64,000 nt of DNA from Candidatus Altiarchaeota archaeon (GTDB lineage Archaea > Altiarchaeota > Altiarchaeia > IMC4 > SCGC-AAA252-I15), in assembly GCA_043800255.1 (NCBI GenBank), contig JAZDNF010000009.1:256001-320000 (forward strand), written 5' to 3'. The stretch's first letter is position 1; each line of letters begins with the position of its first letter. Both the position numbers and the translations under genes were made by a program. Shown here one piece after another: positions 4,359-50,914 of this stretch. The notes under the pieces are model-generated. The model worked only from the letters and a program-made list of their open reading frames with translations, was not told the origin of the DNA and did no database searches.

Positions 4359-5260
4359 GGCTTATAATCTAGCAGTTCTCTTAAAAATATCCTGTGTTTC
4401 CCGAGTTTTCCGCCGAAGTTGCCTGCTGAGATCGCGATTAGGCCGGCAACTTTTGTTGATGCTTCTGCCGCAGCCTTCATAGCCTCCTTGACGGAGTCCA
4501 AACTAATGCCGTTTATCACAATCTCAGGGATGGACTCCACATCCCCCGGCACCTTCGAATCTTTTAGTCGCTCCCTGAGCGTCGGACAGTAGGGGTGGTT
4601 GGTCGTCGGGCCGATGTGCTCATATTTTCCCCCAGCCTTGGAGCCTGCGGAGCAGCCCTCCCTGAATGACAGGACAACACCTTCCACCTTTTTCACAGCC
4701 TCCTCAGCTTTGTCCAAAACCTTAAGAGCAGTTTTCTCGCTGTTGCAATAAAACCATAAGTTGCCGCCCATTATGCCCTCAGAGTACCCCAAATTTTTCT
4801 CAATCCTGAAGGAGCCCATCATCACCGGGATGTTTATCATCTCCCTCCCAAGGTAGCCTTCAACAGACTCATAGCCGTCGCCGCAGTGGCCGATAGCATG
4901 CAACGTGTCTAACTTTTTAGCAGAGTCCAACAGGTTGAACACTAAAGTTGTCGGAACCACCAGCACGCCCTGCCTTATCCTCTTAGAGACCTCATACTCC
5001 AGCCCCTTGACATCGCCTTCCCCTTTTGAGACCCAGTACTGGACTATGGCGCCAGGCCTGCCGTCCGGGGTCTCAGTCTTCCTTACGAACTTTTCAATCC
5101 CCCCCTCAGACTCCCCGAAAACGCAGCACGGCAGCGCGGTGGAATCATAAGCAGCCCTCTTCAGCCGCTTCTCATCCTCAGCAGTGATGAGAACCCTGCA
5201 GTACAGGCCGTCAAAAGCCTCGCAAAAAGTATCCTCAACCCGCACACCCTTGTAAATCAA
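4355..5260 (-). CDS. ftr: Formylmethanofuran-tetrahydromethanopterin N-formyltransferase (Ftr-like)
   Basis: EDTFCEAF, ETPDGRPG, GDGYE, GGNL, SAGSK, TNHPYCPTL, EIVING, SAGNFGGKLG. Confidence 0.88.
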   Translation of the reverse strand: MIYKGVRVEDTFCEAFDGLYCRVLITAEDEKRLKRAAYDSTALPCCVFGESEGGIEKFVRKTETPDGRPGAIVQYWVSKGEGDVKGLEYEVSKRIRQGVLVVPTTLVFNLLDSAKKLDTLHAIGHCGDGYESVEGYLGREMINIPVMMGSFRIEKNLGYSEGIMGGNLWFYCNSEKTALKVLDKAEEAVKKVEGVVLSFREGCSAGSKAGGKYEHIGPTTNHPYCPTLRERLKDSKVPGDVESIPEIVINGISLDSVKEAMKAAAEASTKVAGLIAISAGNFGGKLGKHRIFLRELLDYKP

Positions 5261-5283
5261 AACACACCACCTTAGGTTAGTCG

Positions 5284-7266
5284 TTATTTGAATCCGTATT
5301 TGTCTAGGATTTTGTCTACTACGTCCTTGGAGTCGGGCTCCATGACCGCCACATTATAATAACGGTCGAACGCATCCTTCTGACTTTGCTCAGGAAACCT
5401 CTGAAAATACCGTATGCAATTTATTGTAGCCCCCAAATCCATCGGCCGAGGCAAAACACCCTCCCGAAACGCGAACCTGAAATCATTAGCAGCATTAACA
5501 ACACGCTCCATGGTTTCCACGTCCACATCAGGCCCGAACTTTCTCAAAATCTTCAACTCAGACTCTCTCCCAGGATAATCCACATTAAACACCGCAAAAC
5601 GCCTCAAAAAAGCAATATTCATATCCTGCGTACCCTCATAATTATCAGGATTCATCGTCGCAAAAACCCCGAAACCCTCCTTCGCCTTAACAACCTCGCC
5701 AGAAGGCAACGTAACCCGCTTAGCAGCCAAAATATTATTCAACGACGCCAAAACACCAGGCTCCGGCATATTAGTCTCATCCAAAATAACCTTAAAACCA
5801 TGACGCATAGCAACAATCAACGGACTATCCTCATCAACAGTCTGCCCATTAAAACCACGCCTAACCAACAAATCCTTCTCACGCGTACCCTCCGACAAAC
5901 TCAAAACAGTACACGGCCAATTCAACAAACGACACAAATTCTGAACAATATCAGTCTTACCCGTGCCAGTATCACCCACCAACAAAACATTATTACCCAA
6001 CAACATCTCCTCCAACATATCCTCCTCCAAACCCACCTGCTCCACAACAGGCTCCAACACCACAACAGGAACAAACTTAGAACCAACCTCATCCACCACA
6101 CCACGACGAGCAGAAACACCACCAACAGTCACCATGTCACCAACAACCCTAACCACAGGCTCCGAAACAACAACAGACCCCTGCTCTCTAGACTTGACGG
6201 TAAGCGTAGCAGACGACTTAGCAGACTGGGCAGGTGGTCGACCTGAAGGTTGACGAGGCCGCCCTGACGGCGTAGCAGACGGCTTAGCGGGCCGGACAGG
6301 TTGCGACGGCTGCTGAACAGCGAGCGGATAGTCGGCAATATGGTCTTCCAACAGATTCGTGAAGTCTTTAAATTTCAAGCTTGAGAGGTTTTTCGCCCTC
6401 AACAGCTTCTCCATCAGGATAACATCAGCCCGCATAGGAGTTAACAGTTTGATCAACTTCGGGTCAGACGTCAGTTTGCTGATCTCATCCTCAGCGGTCT
6501 TCTCAGACTCCTCCGTCATTTTCAGAGGGATGAACCTCCTCCAGGGTTCCCGCATCCTAGGCACCCGCTTATATCCTGCCCCGTCATACAGCAACGCAGG
6601 CCCATATCCTAGAGCGTCGAATGCCGCAGTCAGGGTCCTGTGGCTGTGGATTAAATCTGAAAAGGGGAGCAAGTCTCCAACGACCTTATCTTCCATATCA
6701 TATTCCTTCTTGACTAATAATCTTTTAATGAAATCGAGTCTCGTATGCTCCGGTATTTTTGGCAGCTCGTCTATTGGTCTGACTGGCACATCCAACTTCA
6801 TAGCCTTGTCCATGTCGTCGGGTGAGACTTCACCCGTCCAAAGCTTCCCGACCCGGATCAGCTTACGCTTGCCGATTCCCAGATCCTCTTTCGACTCATA
6901 GTACACCTGCCGGGGAAAATAATACTCCCGTGAGTCAGGATCAGTCTCATGCGTATGGTCTTTTTTCAACAGATTCTTAACAGGCGATGCCACTACGAGA
7001 CCACTAGCCATAGTAACAACAGTCGCTCCAAAAAAAAGCATACCCTCAGCTGCATGAAGACCGCCCGAATGCTGAGCACTTTCCATAAACGGTGCAACTC
7101 CGACTAGAGAGACCGCACCAGCGATGGAAACCGGAATAGCAGCCAGCTTATGTCTCTGACTTCTTCGAGTGAGCAGCCCCTTTTTCAACTCTTCTACTTC
7201 AAAGGGGACTGGAAGCTCCTCATCGCCCTTGTGACCTCCGCCCTTGCCTGCGACTTTCACAGCCAT
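5284..7266 (-). CDS. Membrane-associated protein with C-terminal MoxR/CbbQ/NirQ-type AAA+ ATPase domain
   Basis: Two N-terminal hydrophobic segments, Pro/Ser linker, Walker A GDTGTGKT, Walker B ILDE, FATMNP..YEGT, AFLRRF, VDYP; start moved to MAVKVAG. Confidence 0.8.
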   Translation of the reverse strand: MAVKVAGKGGGHKGDEELPVPFEVEELKKGLLTRRSQRHKLAAIPVSIAGAVSLVGVAPFMESAQHSGGLHAAEGMLFFGATVVTMASGLVVASPVKNLLKKDHTHETDPDSREYYFPRQVYYESKEDLGIGKRKLIRVGKLWTGEVSPDDMDKAMKLDVPVRPIDELPKIPEHTRLDFIKRLLVKKEYDMEDKVVGDLLPFSDLIHSHRTLTAAFDALGYGPALLYDGAGYKRVPRMREPWRRFIPLKMTEESEKTAEDEISKLTSDPKLIKLLTPMRADVILMEKLLRAKNLSSLKFKDFTNLLEDHIADYPLAVQQPSQPVRPAKPSATPSGRPRQPSGRPPAQSAKSSATLTVKSREQGSVVVSEPVVRVVGDMVTVGGVSARRGVVDEVGSKFVPVVVLEPVVEQVGLEEDMLEEMLLGNNVLLVGDTGTGKTDIVQNLCRLLNWPCTVLSLSEGTREKDLLVRRGFNGQTVDEDSPLIVAMRHGFKVILDETNMPEPGVLASLNNILAAKRVTLPSGEVVKAKEGFGVFATMNPDNYEGTQDMNIAFLRRFAVFNVDYPGRESELKILRKFGPDVDVETMERVVNAANDFRFAFREGVLPRPMDLGATINCIRYFQRFPEQSQKDAFDRYYNVAVMEPDSKDVVDKILDKYGFK

Positions 7267-7267
7267 T

Positions 7268-7591
7268 TTAAATTTCCGATACCAATGTCTCAACCAGTAT
7301 ACGATTCAAGACGTCGATAGCCTTGGAAGCATCCTCCTCTGACAGCTTCAGCTCCTTCTCCCCTTTTGGAACATACTCCATGAAATTCAGATCGCCATCC
7401 TGAGCATACAAGCCAAGGCGCTTGGAAGGATTCTTGCCATAGATTTTTATCAAATCCCTGTCAGAATCAATCCTATCAACCAAAGCGCGTATAACATCAA
7501 AACCGATGCCCGTAAACCTATTACTCTCTGTTGCCTTGCCGTTCATCTTAGCTTTTTCCATGATATTGTCAGAGCCCTGACCATTGTTCAT
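7268..7591 (-). CDS. Hypothetical protein
   Basis: 107-aa ORF whose stop lies 1 nt before the AAA gene start. Confidence 0.55.
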   Translation of the reverse strand: MNNGQGSDNIMEKAKMNGKATESNRFTGIGFDVIRALVDRIDSDRDLIKIYGKNPSKRLGLYAQDGDLNFMEYVPKGEKELKLSEEDASKAIDVLNRILVETLVSEI

Positions 7592-7624
7592 ATATAGAGA
7601 GAGGATAGAATATATACCCTACAA

Positions 7625-8632
7625 ATGGACTCCCTAATCGATAAAAAGATCGTTGACAGCATGTACGCTGACGGTCTACTTTACGCGAAGTTTGGGGACT
7701 ATGAGAAGAGGCTTCACAATTTTGAAGTCTTTAAGGTGCCGTTGAATGCAGAATTCACGTGCCCGAATTGGGACGGCAGGCTGAGCAAGCAGGGATGCGT
7801 GTACTGCCCGGACTTCGCGAGGCAGTTCACCTACGAGAGCTTCAGGAGGGTCATAGGGAAGACCATGAACGAGCAGCTGAAGGACCAGATACTATATTAT
7901 AAGAAGAGGGGCGCCGGAGAGAAGGCCTTAGTTTATATTGCCTTCGGCACTAACACGTATGCTCCCATAAAGGAGCTGGAAAGGATATTCGAGACCGCGC
8001 TGAAACCGAAGGACGTCATCGGACTGTCAATCGGCACGAGGCCGGACTGCCTCCCGCCTGAAGTCCTTAACCTGTTAGGAGAGTACGTGAAAGACGGGAA
8101 GGAAATCTGGCTCGAACTCGGACAGCAATCAGTCCACTATCACACAGACGAGAGGATAAACAGGCAGCACGGATTCGGCGAATGCATAAAGGCAGTAAAC
8201 GAAGCGCACAAACGGGGGATATACTCGCTCATCTTCATCATCATGGGACTCCCATATGAGACGCCATCAGAGATGCGCGAGACCGCGAAAGTGGTCTCAG
8301 CACTGGGAGCTGACGCCGTGAAACTGTACCCCCTGCTGGTGATGAAGAAGACACGGCTGGCTGCAGAATACAAACAGGGAACCTACAGGCCCATAAGCAG
8401 ATTAGAGTATATCACAGCGGTTGCAGATTTCCTAGAGCATGCGAGCCCCTACGTACTCATACAGAGAGTCAGCAAAGACTGCGGCCTCGACGGGAAAGTA
8501 GTGCCAAGCTGGAACACCCACAGGTTCCTAGTAGGCCCAGAAGTGGAGAAGACGCTGATGATACGAGGAACGAAGCAGGGAGCAAAACACAAACTCGGGC
8601 TAACAGTAGAAGAGCTGACGCCGCTAGCCTAG
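7625..8632 (+). CDS. Radical SAM protein, TIGR01212/YhcC family
   Basis: FTCPNWDG..GCVYC, TNTYAP, IGTRPDC, WLELGQQS, INRQH. Confidence 0.88.
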   Translation: MDSLIDKKIVDSMYADGLLYAKFGDYEKRLHNFEVFKVPLNAEFTCPNWDGRLSKQGCVYCPDFARQFTYESFRRVIGKTMNEQLKDQILYYKKRGAGEKALVYIAFGTNTYAPIKELERIFETALKPKDVIGLSIGTRPDCLPPEVLNLLGEYVKDGKEIWLELGQQSVHYHTDERINRQHGFGECIKAVNEAHKRGIYSLIFIIMGLPYETPSEMRETAKVVSALGADAVKLYPLLVMKKTRLAAEYKQGTYRPISRLEYITAVADFLEHASPYVLIQRVSKDCGLDGKVVPSWNTHRFLVGPEVEKTLMIRGTKQGAKHKLGLTVEELTPLA

Positions 8633-9543
8633 AGAAAATAGTAACTTGAATCGCCTTTGATTTCGAGGAACTCCGCGGTCTTGACGATCCTCCGGGGCTT
8701 CATAAGAGCTGAGGTCTGAGTGTTGGATGTTGACGTCAGAATAACGTCTCCGAATTTTTTCGCGGAATTCTTCACTCTGACGACTTTTTCAGGGTCTCTG
8801 ATGAGCGCTAGGACGGAATTGCCGGAATAGGAGGTGGTAACCGCACCAGCCTCAAGCATCTTGGCGGTGACCTCCCTAGCAGTCTCGGAACCGTGCAATA
8901 ATGCGTTCATGTTCATTGCAGAATACAGGTTCCCCTTCAACGCCTCATCCCATGCCAGCTGGACCTCGTTCCTGAAGAGTGCTGACTTCCCTGCTTTTTT
9001 GAGAGTACAAGCCACAACAGAAAAACCCTCGTTCTCCCCCCTGCGGAGCACTTCCAGCTTCCTGTCATCTGTTATGAAGAACCCGCCGAAGAGGCTGCAA
9101 CAGACCCTGGAAAAGTCCAGTCCCTGTTTTGAGAGCTCTCTGGCAAGTTCAATCCGGTCAACCACCGTACCATCAATCACGTAGAACTGCTCCTTCAAGT
9201 ACTTGTCAACCTTCAACTCCATCACAGACCCGCGCTCCCTTGCCAAGGCACCGGTGACGGCAACAGCAGAGGCGACAGCGATTGATTCCTCGAAACCTAG
9301 ACCAGCTTCTTTCGGAATCTCGGAACTGAAGGACAAGCGGGCGCCAGACTTCTTCCCACAGTAATCTAGAACGACCTTGGCAGCCTTTCTGACGGCAGCC
9401 GGAAGGCTCTTCGGCGTTATGGTCTTGGTTTTCGTCAGCTCGCAGCCGGCCTTAGACCCTAGAGTGATTGCAAAAGACGCTCCCCTGCCAATGGAAGAGG
9501 AGTCGACCAACAGCGCAGACCCGTTTGAAACAGCCTCTAACAT
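8629..9543 (-). CDS. GHMP-fold protein resembling archaeal shikimate kinase, degenerate ATP loop
   Basis: N-terminus resembles archaeal AroK; SEIPKEAGLG followed by FEES instead of SSA; FGGFFITD. Confidence 0.6.
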   Translation of the reverse strand: MLEAVSNGSALLVDSSSIGRGASFAITLGSKAGCELTKTKTITPKSLPAAVRKAAKVVLDYCGKKSGARLSFSSEIPKEAGLGFEESIAVASAVAVTGALARERGSVMELKVDKYLKEQFYVIDGTVVDRIELARELSKQGLDFSRVCCSLFGGFFITDDRKLEVLRRGENEGFSVVACTLKKAGKSALFRNEVQLAWDEALKGNLYSAMNMNALLHGSETAREVTAKMLEAGAVTTSYSGNSVLALIRDPEKVVRVKNSAKKFGDVILTSTSNTQTSALMKPRRIVKTAEFLEIKGDSSYYFL

Positions 9544-9760: not shown

Positions 9761-10501
9761 ATGGAACCTGCAGAATTCTGCGAGCGGTTGAATGAGAGCG
9801 TCCAAGACGACTGCCTCATCACGTTAATCTGCAACTGCTCGATCGAGTACTGGGGCAGGAGCAGGTCGAAGGTCGGTGATGGTGAAAGGATCATTCTGAT
9901 AAAACCTGACAGCACGCTGATAGTGCACTCCCCCTCAGGCTTCAAACCATTGAACTGGATGTCGCCGCCAACCGACACCGTAGCCTCCCTCACAGGCGGA
10001 CAGGTTGAGATCTTCTCCCAGAGGACGAAGAAACCCTACGAGGAGATGAAAATCAGGATAAACCATGTTAAGGACTTCCAACTCTACGGCGGCCTCAGGG
10101 ATGGCGAGAAGCTGGAGCTAACGCACACGGAGGCTGACATGAGAGACTATCTGGAAGACCACCCCGAGAAAATCGACGCGAACTTCCAGTTGAAGAGCGT
10201 TGAATTCCAGACTCCGGTCGGATTCTTCGACCTCTATGGGAAACTGGAGGGGAAGTACACGATAGTAGAGCTGAAAGCCGAGCGCGCCGGACTCCCAGCA
10301 GTGTTCCAACTGAAAAGATACAGGGACTGGCTGCGCGAACACGTCGACAAAGAGGGAGAAGGCATACTCATCGCTCCGGGAATAACGCCCAACGCACTCC
10401 AACTCCTGAGGAGAGAGAAATTGATGTTCAAAAAGTTCTCAAGAAGCCAGGTAGAAAAGCGGAAAAAGCCGAACAAGACGTTAGACAGTTGGATGGATTA
10501 G
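9761..10501 (+). CDS. nucS: Mismatch endonuclease NucS/EndoMS
   Basis: CSIEYWGRSRS, IKPDSTLIVH, PLNW, EADMRD, VELK, QLKRY, GILIAP. Confidence 0.92.
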   Translation: MEPAEFCERLNESVQDDCLITLICNCSIEYWGRSRSKVGDGERIILIKPDSTLIVHSPSGFKPLNWMSPPTDTVASLTGGQVEIFSQRTKKPYEEMKIRINHVKDFQLYGGLRDGEKLELTHTEADMRDYLEDHPEKIDANFQLKSVEFQTPVGFFDLYGKLEGKYTIVELKAERAGLPAVFQLKRYRDWLREHVDKEGEGILIAPGITPNALQLLRREKLMFKKFSRSQVEKRKKPNKTLDSWMD

Positions 10502-47581: not shown

Positions 47582-47890
47582 TCAGAGCGTCACTGGGAGA
47601 GAGATTAGATTCCATCCCAGGGTTAAGGGGATTATCACATCCTGAGTCGAACTTTCTAGGAGCGTCCTAGTGTCTGCGGTGTAATTGCCGCCTCCGCTGT
47701 TTGAGTCCCCGCCAGGTTGGGCGGTTAGTATGAAACGGGCGGTATAGTTCCCGCCTTGCACTGTTCCGCCCTGCAGCCCGCTGACTTGGTTGAACGTGAA
47801 ATTCTCGCCGGAAGCGATTGCCGCCCCAGTGATTAGGACTAACAGCACAGCCCAGAGGTATGAGATTACTGTAGGGCGCATTACGTGCAT
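47582..47890 (-). CDS. Small exported protein ending in GWNLISLP motif
   Basis: Signal peptide, GGNYTA twice, C-terminal LTLGWNLISLP; overlaps the adhesin stop. Confidence 0.6.
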   Translation of the reverse strand: MHVMRPTVISYLWAVLLVLITGAAIASGENFTFNQVSGLQGGTVQGGNYTARFILTAQPGGDSNSGGGNYTADTRTLLESSTQDVIIPLTLGWNLISLPVTL

Positions 47891-50595
47891 GCTCCACCAC
47901 CGTCAACTTGATTCCAACTCGAAGCATTGCAGAAGCATATCTCGTTCATTGATGTATCATGGTATATGCCACCTTGGGTAGTCCCATCGCATGTGGTCGG
48001 CGTGTCCGTAGATGTTAGCAGGACAGTAACAAATCTTACAACATTTGTAGTCTGCACATTCTGATCCATATCATACAGCTCATTAGCACCTTGACCAGTA
48101 TCAACAGTTGCCGCGCTCAGCGCAGAGGAGGACGCGATTGTAATGTCATTATCGACTTCGGCGTCTGCAATACAAGACGTCCCGCACTGCACATTCTCAA
48201 CACTGGCGACACCGCTAGACCATGCGACATCACCATGATCAGCATCAGCCATCTCAGCAGCAGCCACCACATCAGCATCCAAAGTACACGAACCAGCAGA
48301 ACAACTGAAATCAACAAAATCAGCAGTAGCCAACTCAGCAGCAGCAACACAACCAGTACATTGCAAATTCTGAACAGTCGCAGTACCAGTAGTCCAAGCG
48401 ACATCACCATGATCAGCATCAGCCATATGAGCCGCGGCAACAGAAGCACAACTCAACGTATCAGCAAGACCAGTAACAAACTGATTAGTACAAGCCGTCG
48501 GATAACTATTAATGTCTGTCCAAGTTGAAGTTCTCACATAATTCGATGCGGTTATTGTGTCAGACACATTAGCATCCCCCAGAACATCAGCATATGTGAG
48601 AACAACCTGCCCGTTCTTATAAATGCTAGTACTGTTCACGTCCCCAGAAGCAACTAGATTTGTCTTACTTATTGTTGCAGGCAACGCAGCATTATTCACG
48701 CTCCCGCTTGAACCAACTGTGATAGTGTCATCAACTTCTGCGTCCGAAATGCAAGAGCCACTGCATTGCACATTCTCGACTGATGCAACACCAGTAGTCC
48801 AAGCAACATCACCGTGGTCGGCATCAGCCATCTCAGCAGCAGCCACCACATCAGCATCCAAAGTACACGCCCCGTTCAAACAAGTGAAATCAGTATAATC
48901 CGTATCAGCCAACTCCGTGTTCGTAACACACTCAGAACACTGCAAATTCTGAACAGTCGCAACACCGGTAGTCCAAGCAACATCACCATGATCAGCATCA
49001 GCCATATGAGCCGCAGCAACAGAAGCACAACTCAACGTATCAGCAAGACCAGTAACAAACTGATTAGTACAAGCAGTCGGATAACTATCAATATCAGTCC
49101 ACGCGTCCCTGCTCACATACAGGGAATCCAAAGCGGTACCGCCCTGATAGAAGGCGGACGCATTGACGTTGTTGGACGAGACAACACCCGCAAAGGTGAC
49201 GGTATTCGTAGTCTGAACGTTCTGGTCCATGTCATACAGCTCATTGGCGCCTTGGCCGGTGTTGACTGTGGCGAATGTGACCGCGGAGCCTGTAGAGACT
49301 GCCTGGTCGATGCCGTCCAAGTTAGCCCACTCAGCAGTCGTGAGGGAGTTGGCGCCGATAACGAATTCCGTTGCAGTGACCTTAACAGTCGCCGTAATGT
49401 TATGGAATGTGACCTGGTTTGTGGTGGCGAGATTCTGATCGGTGAAGCTTACATTCGACAGGGGAATGCCACCGGAAGTTGTCCAATCGTTTGTAGAATC
49501 GGTGTCCAGATTCCCGGTGCTGGTTATGTTAGCCAGATTGTGCTGATGAGAATCATCATCCACTGTCGGGCTTGCGCCTGACCCCCCTAAATCGCCGCCC
49601 CATGATGTTCCGTCAGATATTACGCTCAACCACGACAGCCCGTCATATATCCTCAGAACGTTTAGCGTAGTGTCATAGTATATGAATCCCTCGCTCGGTG
49701 AGCTGGGCGCAGAACTTCGAGGTTCGATCATCATATAATCGCTCACATGTAACGGCGCCAACGGGGCTAGAGTGTCTATCCCCACCTTGCCGCCCATGAT
49801 TGCCATGGTGCTCGACTGGGTCAGGTTAGACCCCGTTTGATCGTTCAATGCTATTCCAACAGAATATGAGCCGCTAGCCTCTATGCCCTTGCCTGTGGCA
49901 ATGGAATACCAGCCAGACGAGGCCGTACTGTGACCTAAAGCGGTGGACCACTTGCCGGATGCAGTCGTATTATACCCGGTTGCCATCGCATATAATGCTG
50001 ATGAGGTCGTCCAACCTCCAAACGCTGTGGAATAGTCGGCTGATGCGTTTGTATTCCGCCCCATTGCAGTCGAATACCAGCCTGTTGAGGATGTTCCTTC
50101 ACCCAATGCCGTGGAGGAGACGCCTGATGAAACCGTGTTAACCCCGCAGACGCCATCTGAACCGACGATTTCAGAACAATTCAGCTGTGATTCGTTGACG
50201 ACGTTGCCGCCTAGGCTGTCATTCCTAACGTCCTCCCCTGAGACATCACCCAAAGAGCTATACCATATCAGCCTCTCCTCACCGTTGAAGTCCAGGTCAA
50301 CGCCGTTGATTTGATAATCCTTATAGTAGACTCTCCCATACTCGAGCGATAGGTTCAACAGGATATTCCAGCTTCCGTTAGATATTGCGTTGGCGAATGT
50401 CACATTGTAGAGGTTCGTTCCTCCTGAGAGATTGTCCCATAATTGGACCGTCAGGTTGCCGGACTGCAATAATACGCCTGATTCTCTGACGTCCGTGCCC
50501 TGATCAGAAACCGAAACATTAAGGCTGCCGCTAACCTGCGCCCCACTGAATACTGCGAAAAGTATTAGTGAGAATAGGACCCTTCTCACTTGCAT
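47881..50595 (-). CDS. Large exported fibre/adhesin-like protein with YadA-head-like and Cys/Asp-rich repeats
   Basis: Signal peptide; 14-aa STAxG repeats; GKVGI; EGFIYYDT; four MADADHGDVAW units. Confidence 0.8.
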   Translation of the reverse strand: MQVRRVLFSLILFAVFSGAQVSGSLNVSVSDQGTDVRESGVLLQSGNLTVQLWDNLSGGTNLYNVTFANAISNGSWNILLNLSLEYGRVYYKDYQINGVDLDFNGEERLIWYSSLGDVSGEDVRNDSLGGNVVNESQLNCSEIVGSDGVCGVNTVSSGVSSTALGEGTSSTGWYSTAMGRNTNASADYSTAFGGWTTSSALYAMATGYNTTASGKWSTALGHSTASSGWYSIATGKGIEASGSYSVGIALNDQTGSNLTQSSTMAIMGGKVGIDTLAPLAPLHVSDYMMIEPRSSAPSSPSEGFIYYDTTLNVLRIYDGLSWLSVISDGTSWGGDLGGSGASPTVDDDSHQHNLANITSTGNLDTDSTNDWTTSGGIPLSNVSFTDQNLATTNQVTFHNITATVKVTATEFVIGANSLTTAEWANLDGIDQAVSTGSAVTFATVNTGQGANELYDMDQNVQTTNTVTFAGVVSSNNVNASAFYQGGTALDSLYVSRDAWTDIDSYPTACTNQFVTGLADTLSCASVAAAHMADADHGDVAWTTGVATVQNLQCSECVTNTELADTDYTDFTCLNGACTLDADVVAAAEMADADHGDVAWTTGVASVENVQCSGSCISDAEVDDTITVGSSGSVNNAALPATISKTNLVASGDVNSTSIYKNGQVVLTYADVLGDANVSDTITASNYVRTSTWTDINSYPTACTNQFVTGLADTLSCASVAAAHMADADHGDVAWTTGTATVQNLQCTGCVAAAELATADFVDFSCSAGSCTLDADVVAAAEMADADHGDVAWSSGVASVENVQCGTSCIADAEVDNDITIASSSALSAATVDTGQGANELYDMDQNVQTTNVVRFVTVLLTSTDTPTTCDGTTQGGIYHDTSMNEICFCNASSWNQVDGGGACT
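48150..49100. repeat. Internal duplication in the adhesin (about 370 bp, offset 579 bp)
   Basis: WTDI.SYPTACTNQFVTGLADTLSCASVAAAHMADADHGDVAW...VENVQC occurs twice. Confidence 0.9.
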
Positions 50596-50914
50596 ACACC
50601 TCTGCTCAGTTAAGTATGGTTGTTGGCTTAAAAATACGATTATCTGATGATTTTATGCCATAAAACGGCAGTTAAGGTTTTCAGGAGAATATCAACTTTT
50701 CTCCCGCACACACCCCCCCCCCCACTCTGCCCTCTGCTGTCCTGAAGAGCGGGTGCGCGTCTATTTCGTCGACCTCAAGCAGGCGACAGTATGCAGCATG
50801 GTCTCTCGTTTTCAGCTTTCTCTTGATAATGTTGGAGGCGTTATGGATATCTGGTTCTTCATTTTTCCAGAACTCTCAGGTTATTATTTTGTTACACTAA
50901 TCTGATTTCAATCT

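Follow-up and report, generated by a model that had tools for sequence, protein, structure and literature searches.

Why should a single gene of an archaeal genome contain an internal stretch in which almost every codon ends in G or T, with a sharp border on one side and a reversal to A and C on the other? The question is raised by a locus of Candidatus Altiarchaeota archaeon, in a gene encoding a protein with a C-terminal AAA ATPase module. The window, that is, the whole stretch of DNA that was analysed, has 64,000 nucleotides (G000:C7:256001-320000) and belongs to a genome (G000) of 1.75 Mb in 17 contigs that is 93% complete. Positions refer to the window unless a contig is named; G and T are referred to as keto bases, and A and C as amino bases.

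The G/T-saturated tract of an AAA ATPase gene

The gene is divided by its codon pattern into the following parts.

5284 to 7293, minus strand: open reading frame (ORF) of 669 codons, with an N-terminal region containing predicted hydrophobic helices, a Pro/Ser/Arg-rich linker and a C-terminal AAA_5 (MoxR/GvpN-like) ATPase module
6187 to 6318, minus strand: linker rich in Pro, Ser, Arg and Ala, adjoining the sharp tract edge on its upstream side; 76% G/T third positions; not alignable with the closest homologue
5569 to 6186, minus strand: core of the tract, codons 370 to 575; third positions G or T in 202 of 206 codons
5338 to 5568, minus strand: decaying tail, codons 576 to 652; G/T third positions 76-84% per 25-codon bin (bins spanning codons 576 to 650), visible as a ramp in the 90-nt profile
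5284 to 5337, minus strand: sign flip at the gene end; A/C endings in 16 of 17 sense codons (653 to 669), followed by TAA

The four codons of the core that deviate (GAC386, GGC443, GGC532 and TTC541) each end in C, and leucine is encoded by TTG all along the tract. The keto fraction per 25-codon bin over codons 376 to 575 ranges from 0.56 to 0.84 at the first position, from 0.40 to 0.72 at the second and from 0.92 to 1.00 at the third. On the plus strand, 200-nt windows across 5400-6199 display a GC skew of -0.41 to -0.67 and an AT skew of +0.17 to +0.49. Codons 1 to 325 are mixed, with 40-80% G/T third positions per 25-codon bin. A first-pass annotation, made from the sequence alone, had pointed out the G/T-ending tract, the mixed codons of the N-terminal half and the switch to A/C in the last 17 or so codons, and the counts bear out all three. 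The start that it assigned to the tract, at 5430, proved arbitrary, since the tail continues down to 5338 before the sign flips, and the sharp edge lies on the opposite side, at about 6186-6190. The Walker A (GDTGTGKT) and Walker B (VILDE) motifs, described there as intact, are legible in a codon-by-codon reading.

With p = 0.49, the binomial probability of at least 202 G/T endings among 206 codons is 1.3e-56. Synonymous-codon resampling (20 rounds, 1481 ORFs, 544,532 codons) gave maximal run scores of 14 to 20 for G/T and 17 to 28 for A/C, none reaching 30, against observed maxima of 179 and 76; the score of 179 is that of the AAA tract and the highest of the genome. Among 34,794 genome windows of 500 nt, the keto skew of the tract (-0.46) lies about 6 standard deviations out and is outranked only by a tract at a contig end. 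The concern that the skew might fall within the genome-wide distribution of sliding windows is thereby dispelled. The observation is confirmed, and chance is excluded.

The annotation knew of no named system for such a tract; the same compositional pattern had, however, been described in 2021 under the name of GRINS, in bacteria and in some eukaryotic polyketide synthases (PKSs) (PMC8256042). According to the accessible part of that report, GRINS are regions of intense, correlated GC and TA skews that are strongest at third positions, flip abruptly within 1 kb and reside in functional PKS genes. Positive skew enriches Gly, Val, Cys and Trp, and negative skew enriches Pro, Thr, His and Gln. GRINS are tied to modules and gene conversion and are commonest in Streptomyces, single-copy skewed regions being mentioned as well; their mechanism is given as unknown, and the authors propose tautomer-driven polymerase errors (PMC8256042). 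In the same part of the report they are defined by mean absolute GC and TA skews above 0.15 (150-nt windows, step 30) that are correlated, extend over more than 500 bp and are duplicated at more than 80% identity in the same cluster or genome, and its text contains neither the word archaea nor NucS, mismatch or heteroduplex (PMC8256042).

Under three delimitations of the AAA tract, GC skew averages -0.51 to -0.55 and TA skew -0.31 to -0.35, both negative on the plus strand and correlated with r = 0.49-0.63 over 16-24 windows. The core measures 618 bp (5569-6186), and about 850 bp with the tail; the third position is the most strongly skewed, the coding sequence is intact and its residues are shifted in the keto direction. 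Duplication is the one element of the GRINS definition that was not found, as blastn of contig positions 261273-262300 against the genome returned no second DNA copy of the tract, the sole match being 35 nt long and located outside it. The AAA tract is a single-copy archaeal region of GRINS-kind skew. It resembles GRINS in that its intense GC and TA skews agree in sign, which leaves one strand composed mostly of G+T or of C+A, and differs from them in being archaeal and single-copy and in the company of patches that also occupy single-copy housekeeping genes at lineage-specific places. Literature searches on skew and codon patterns in archaea found no description of such patches, and the skews treated in a 2026 paper on archaea are cumulative and genome-wide, with no mention of GRINS or of patches. 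The target of a diversity-generating retroelement, in which a template and a variable repeat would differ specifically at adenines, was also considered for the tract and rejected, given the lack of a second copy and the depletion of C as well as A (a reverse transcriptase was not searched for).

Related patches in the genome and the family

Runs of every two-base class were scanned at the third positions of non-overlapping ORFs of at least 150 codons. G000 contains 15 G/T and 10 A/C runs scoring at least 30 (nine and five, respectively, at 40 or more), and the AAA tract is the strongest of these approximately 25 patches. Of the control classes, purine, pyrimidine and A/T gave no runs of 30 or more in this genome, and G/C none of 40 or more. 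A scan without the ORF filter was dropped as noisy, as purine-rich first codon positions yield many runs. Patches are located in the first 100 codons of class-I LysRS, the last 76 codons of HtpX (all A/C), an MtrH-like gene, a pair of LonB genes and repeat proteins.

A pattern of 40 consecutive keto third positions was matched in each of the 21 family genomes (relatives labelled Altiarchaeota), each genome having between 22 and 5340 overlapping windows; some of the matches inspected proved to be Ser/Thr repeats, and the pattern is palindromic, which renders a reverse control uninformative. The most patched family genome, G007 (5340 matching windows), has contigs that are mosaics of kb-sized stretches of both signs, and the sign tracks the DNA strand across genes of either orientation. 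Spread beyond the family was judged from 80 LysRS-centred loci. The 27 loci of Altiarchaeota type (107,361 codons) contain 11 runs scoring at least 30, versus a single one in the 53 other archaeal loci (Hadarchaeota, Undinarchaeota, Methanobacteria and others; 230,499 codons). This lone run, of A/C type and with a score of 90, covers residues 11-177 of a glutamine-synthetase-like gene (L093:2767-4119, minus strand) in a metagenome-assembled genome (MAG) labelled Hadarchaeota, and the pattern is therefore not confined to Altiarchaeota. Four further, shorter runs were noted at the same locus.

The LysRS gene allows a comparison of patched and unpatched orthologues. Among 16 full-length sequences (54-64% identical), patches occur only in G000, G015 and G007, at different residues and with different signs, and the other 13 are near neutral. 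The protein encoded by the patch is no more divergent than the rest of the gene, and its nearest neighbours are unchanged; import of the LysRS patches from a donor was rejected on the ground that these neighbours are the same as for the rest of the gene. These alignments indicate that the patches arise in place and are lineage-specific. In three genomes, a gene of 242-243 codons directly downstream of LysRS has A/C-skewed third positions, with a keto fraction of the plus strand of 0.23-0.31 (L035:3094-3822, L062:3660-4391, L067:11590-12321). Unlike the LysRS patches, this may be a conserved or recurrent patch.

The composition of the patches reveals the level at which the force operates. Leucine is encoded by TTG in 56 of 66 cases in G/T patches, compared with 14% in the genome, and by CTA or CTC in 26 of 27 cases in A/C patches. 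The amino acid content differs as well between G/T and A/C patches, with Val at 13.6% versus 3.1%, Gly at 11.8% versus 4.4%, Thr at 3.7% versus 10.2% and Lys at 2.6% versus 9.5%. Of the residues at which the AAA module differs from its closest homologue, P0011, 80 are shifted towards keto-rich codons and 43 in the opposite direction; the shift is similar in relation to P0007, P0002 and P0031, and absent in relation to P0008 and P0012. Because the first positions of Leu codons and the amino acid composition track the skew, the force acts on bases rather than on wobble choice or tRNA. The proposal of a local, strand-specific force at the nucleotide level, acting on a module under purifying selection, is thus upheld, with saturated third positions that the first positions of Leu codons and weakly constrained residues follow.

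The same annotation had described the process as deamination-like, with C>T and A>G changes. In G/T patches, Arg is encoded by CGT in 19 of 37 cases, versus 5% genome-wide, T exceeds G by about 3:1 at four-fold sites, and the residual third positions comprise 12 A and 37 C, implying that both are depleted and A more so. In paralogue pairs of unequal skew, transitions account for 73-79% of the net amino/keto differences; in one pair the net amino/keto transversions number 10 versus 3, in itself weak evidence. The CGT enrichment, the excess of T over G and the biased transversions indicate that transitions alone are insufficient, and deamination-like changes as the sole process do not fit these data.

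The borders of several patches coincide with those of genes. In the AAA gene the skew ends at the stop codon, and the HtpX, C5 and LysRS patches likewise terminate at a stop or a start codon; in G007 and other genomes the sign flips are often intergenic. The spacers within skewed runs of genes mostly lie near 0.5; their shift is about 0.08, versus about 0.27 at third positions. A break-centred model, in which a G/T arm lies to the left and an A/C arm to the right, was tried for the sign order and abandoned; it fits the AAA gene and C8:1-270 and fails at C5:64.6 kb.

Several patches lie in repeated DNA. Two LonB-type paralogues, about 50% identical in their N-terminal parts, share an identical G/T patch of 141 nt (G000:C13:49975-50115 and G000:C14:1-141). 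The shared identity starts where the G/T run starts, and both copies are at contig ends, where the assembly breaks. This patch points to gene conversion or a shared insert. A second copy was found for 7 of 21 queries from patches or skewed contig ends, versus 19 of 400 random 300-nt segments, a rough comparison in which query lengths differ. A surface-type repeat protein of 923 codons (47884-50652, minus strand) has G/T-saturated stretches at 48229-48513 and 48970-49102, which sit in tandem modules of 372 nt that are 84% identical (48151-48522 and 48730-49101). These patches come nearer to the published definition of GRINS than the AAA tract does, and yet are shorter than 500 bp. The suggestion that the skew is tied to recombination or gene conversion between paralogous modules, and hence to multi-copy segments, is therefore tenable in part. 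The link is plausible in view of the skew that is co-extensive with the AAA module, the LonB patch, the other patches in repeated modules and the excess of duplicated queries; the AAA tract itself has no paralogous DNA copy.

Strongly skewed contig ends, defined as those whose outermost 150 nt have a keto fraction that departs from 0.5 by 0.19 or more, make up 5 of 34 ends (C1 start, C2 end, C8 start, C11 end and C13 start), compared with 0.29% of windows. The end of C12 (0.31) and others are just below this threshold. It seems that de Bruijn assemblies break at the skew patches, owing to repeats or to microdiversity.

The AAA module and its cassette

The gene is an accessory one and resides in a small cassette, an indel relative to a close relative, with the following features.

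5273 to 7624, no strand assigned: two-gene cassette (AAA gene and 107-aa ORF), absent from a relative of about 94-95% identity in groundwater metagenome runs
7268 to 7591, minus strand: 107-aa ORF of the cassette; no family match, negative with PADLOC and NCBIfam
6234 to 6268, no strand assigned: 35 nt that repeat exactly, in inverted orientation, part of the P-type ATPase gene of the same genome (C7:80777-80811; blastn)
5386 to 6246, plus strand: 286-codon antisense ORF, not regarded as a gene; judging from composition, probably a by-product of the A/C-rich plus strand, as such a strand has few stop codons

The Pfam family AAA_5 (PF07728) matches residues 435-566 with an E value of 1.4e-25 and 90.3 bits (cut-off 22), over model positions 1-139 of 139. 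A search of NCBIfam gave only sub-threshold matches of GvpN/CobS type, with no specific subfamily over the cut-off. The N-terminal region of 370 residues has two predicted hydrophobic helices and is without relatives. The protein thus resembles the MoxR/GvpN/CbbQ-type AAA_5 ATPases in its full-length match with Walker A and B, and differs from them in this N-terminal part, which is also unlike that of the homologue of similar length.

In 40 relatives, matches to the AAA protein are restricted to residues from 396 onwards, at 33% identity or less, and no orthologue of the gene was found in these genomes or in a set of 5.8 billion clustered proteins. A single homologue of similar length, P0011 (688 aa), was recovered from 1.84 billion representatives; it is 44% identical over residues 370-668 and has a WD40-like N-terminus unrelated to that of the AAA gene. 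The alignment starts at residue 370, the exact position of the sharp edge of the skew, so that the skewed unit corresponds to an entire portable AAA module, beginning with its first residue and ending at the stop codon. In another collection, an independent assembly yielded the identical module on a contig of 1051 nt (P0006).

In the groundwater relative, a 2154-nt contig (run X2) matches 4743-5272 and 7625-9207, with 38 other letters in between, and the depth is 0 to 0.54 in the three bins over 5337-7337. The cassette is flanked by two divergent genes, Ftr-like and radical-SAM-like. Its reading as a defence system was rejected, as PADLOC gave no match. The 35-nt copy derives from the conserved 'VVDLKVDEAALT' region of the P-type ATPase gene and sits in the linker, 45 nt upstream of the skew edge, where it has the appearance of filler DNA left at a joint of illegitimate recombination. 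The putative filler is 100% identical to the native gene, implying that the joint was formed in this or a very close lineage. As for an orthologue that might polarise the changes, none was found for the AAA gene, the close groundwater relative (runs X1/X2) lacks the cassette, and LysRS sequences in metagenome contigs (12 loci) are at most 61% identical.

Candidate causes of the skew

Two familiar processes share features with the patches. GC-biased gene conversion, known from eukaryotes and some bacteria, favours G and C on both strands, without strand asymmetry. It is similar in that a repair bias in heteroduplex mimics selection on standing variants, saturates synonymous sites locally and spares constrained sites; it differs in that the bias here opposes keto and amino bases on one strand, and in that a conversion bias as such is deduced in the present case. 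The leading strand of replication is rich in G and T, and vertebrate mitochondrial DNA displays a comparably strong asymmetry at third positions. The base classes are the same, but those asymmetries extend over the chromosome and flip at origins or termini, whereas the units here measure 0.1-1 kb (several kb in G007), with both signs adjacent. In orientation-corrected third positions of seven large contigs (20-kb bins), no sustained replichore-scale trend was found, only local excursions.

The reading that we tentatively favour, while stopping short of calling it probable, is recombination limited by homology, with an amino-to-keto bias that is specific to one strand and is filtered by selection. 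The force would act during homologous or homeologous recombination (gene conversion), and not on the region itself, which would account for a skew that stops where homology stops. In the heteroduplex, keto-keto mismatches (G/T, G/G, T/T) would be handled unlike amino-amino mismatches (A/C, A/A, C/C), and one strand would steadily gain one base class. The bias would work on standing, mostly synonymous variation, and constrained sites would for this reason be spared. Such a bias in the processing of heteroduplex is preferred over regional damage because of the homology borders, the spared constrained sites, the ties to repeats and conversion, and the sorting into keto and amino classes.

A candidate for the filter is NucS/EndoMS, which would cut the keto-keto heteroduplex and let the amino-amino heteroduplex pass. 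The invading strand would then hand on amino-class differences only, and repeated events of the same polarity would saturate the tolerated sites. On the plus strand, a homology-limited segment would be expected to be G/T-skewed in its left arm and A/C-skewed in its right arm. According to the accessible parts of the respective reports, EndoMS/NucS cleaves G/T, G/G and T/T mismatches, with little or no effect on A/C, A/A and C/C (PMC4838380), NucS of Streptomyces, which relies on this enzyme, has the same mismatch specificity (PMC11109965), and homeologous recombination is inhibited by NucS (PMC5290159). A homologue is encoded in the window.

10130 to 10471, plus strand: NucS/EndoMS homologue (Pfam NucS_C, E 1.6e-21) in a 250-codon open frame, 4 kb from the AAA tract

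MutS_V and MutL domains were not found in G000, and among the family genomes NucS is present in 18 of 21 and MutS_V in 1 of 21. We consider it a doubtful but attractive extension that the patches are footprints of a hitherto undescribed evolutionary force, keto/amino-biased gene conversion, arising because NucS/EndoMS, as the sole mismatch nuclease of these organisms, is blind to amino-amino mismatches; this would unite the GRINS of Streptomyces and the archaeal patches.

A number of observations weigh against recombination with a biased heteroduplex, or against NucS as its agent. The order of the arms at the AAA module is the one expected, but the arms are very unequal (54 nt versus about 850 nt), and the neighbouring-sign patterns at other patches are not uniform. 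As no second copy of the module lies inside the genome, the recombination partner would have to be assumed to lie elsewhere, and the model would require repeated invasion by the same strand at a single site. Two of nine spacers within skewed gene runs are clearly skewed (0.24 and 0.67), as regional mutation pressure predicts. The first and second positions of the LysRS patch have no directional excess (11 versus 11); the data are weak here and also compatible with a bias on standing variation. With regard to NucS, the enzyme is found in most archaea, so that its presence is not discriminating, and G007, the most patched genome, is the sole family genome with a MutS_V match. GRINS, moreover, are reported from several bacterial phyla (PMC8256042), which may or may not carry NucS.

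The closest competitor, which we regard as rather unlikely, is local damage to a single strand repeatedly exposed, for instance in an R-loop formed by the transcript of the gene itself or after end resection, with hydrolytic deamination of C to U and of A to hypoxanthine (giving C>T and A>G on the coding strand) and the purging of harmful changes by selection. It would explain that the base classes are exactly amino to keto, that A and C are both depleted, that transitions prevail in the paralogue differences and that some spacers in skewed regions are skewed too. The sawtooth profile, with a sharp 5' onset in the sense of the gene and a downstream decay, resembles that expected of R-loops with a fixed start and variable length, and vertebrate mitochondrial DNA may offer an analogy. 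However, A/C runs are nearly as common as G/T runs (10 versus 15 at scores of at least 30) and the sign follows the DNA strand in G007, which rules out sense transcription as a general cause. Exposed DNA would not respect a stop codon or a homology border, and most spacers are near 0.5. Neither the CGT excess of Arg, nor T over G at four-fold sites, nor the biased transversions would result from deamination, and the LysRS patch has no excess of directional replacements. Alternatively, the composition of the module could have evolved on a strand-asymmetric replicon, such as a virus or plasmid with single-stranded intermediates, before the module was joined to the N-terminal part. We deem this import unlikely. 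The absence of the cassette from a close relative, the chimeric gene with filler at its joint, the lack of an orthologue in 40 relatives, the single full-module homologue among 1.84 billion representatives and codons unlike those of the genome (Arg CGT, Leu TTG, Gly GGT) are all in keeping with it. On the other hand, patches in native single-copy housekeeping genes with unchanged neighbours indicate that the process operates in this lineage, and a special donor is therefore unnecessary. The filler is identical to a native gene, no uniformly skewed donor was seen, G007 itself being a mosaic of two signs, and import would move the problem of the mechanism to another replicon without solving it.

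Selection on synonymous codons or mRNA, in which NNK and NNM codon dialects would tune the decoding speed or RNA structure of domains, has little to recommend it as a cause and is judged improbable. The pattern is indeed largely confined to coding sequence and often changes at gene or domain borders, and the LysRS patch has no directional amino acid change. This account is opposed by the shifts in Leu first positions (TTG for CTG or CTT; CTA or CTC for TTA) and in amino acid composition, and by sister orthologues that have no patch, or have one of opposite sign in another place; a saturation of 98% is not known from codon selection. An artefact of assembly or sequencing, to which the enrichment of skewed stretches at contig ends (5 of 34) might be attributed, is scarcely credible. 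It would affect all codon positions, yet the protein is intact and matches the full AAA_5 model, the identical module on P0006 was assembled independently, and patches are present in MAGs from many studies and assemblers.

With respect to GRINS, the present analysis adds that the pattern is pervasive in a family of archaea, that it originates in situ in essential genes present as single copies, as the orthologue comparisons suggest, and that its borders follow homology and genes. The patches appear to break metagenome assemblies and spawn long spurious antisense ORFs, and they distort tests based on codon usage, on the ratio of nonsynonymous to synonymous substitution rates (dN/dS) and on composition, such as calls of horizontal transfer. 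The asymmetric recognition of mismatches by NucS/EndoMS in recombination heteroduplex offers a testable cause. If it is correct, the type of mismatch repair would shape local codon usage, and even protein composition.

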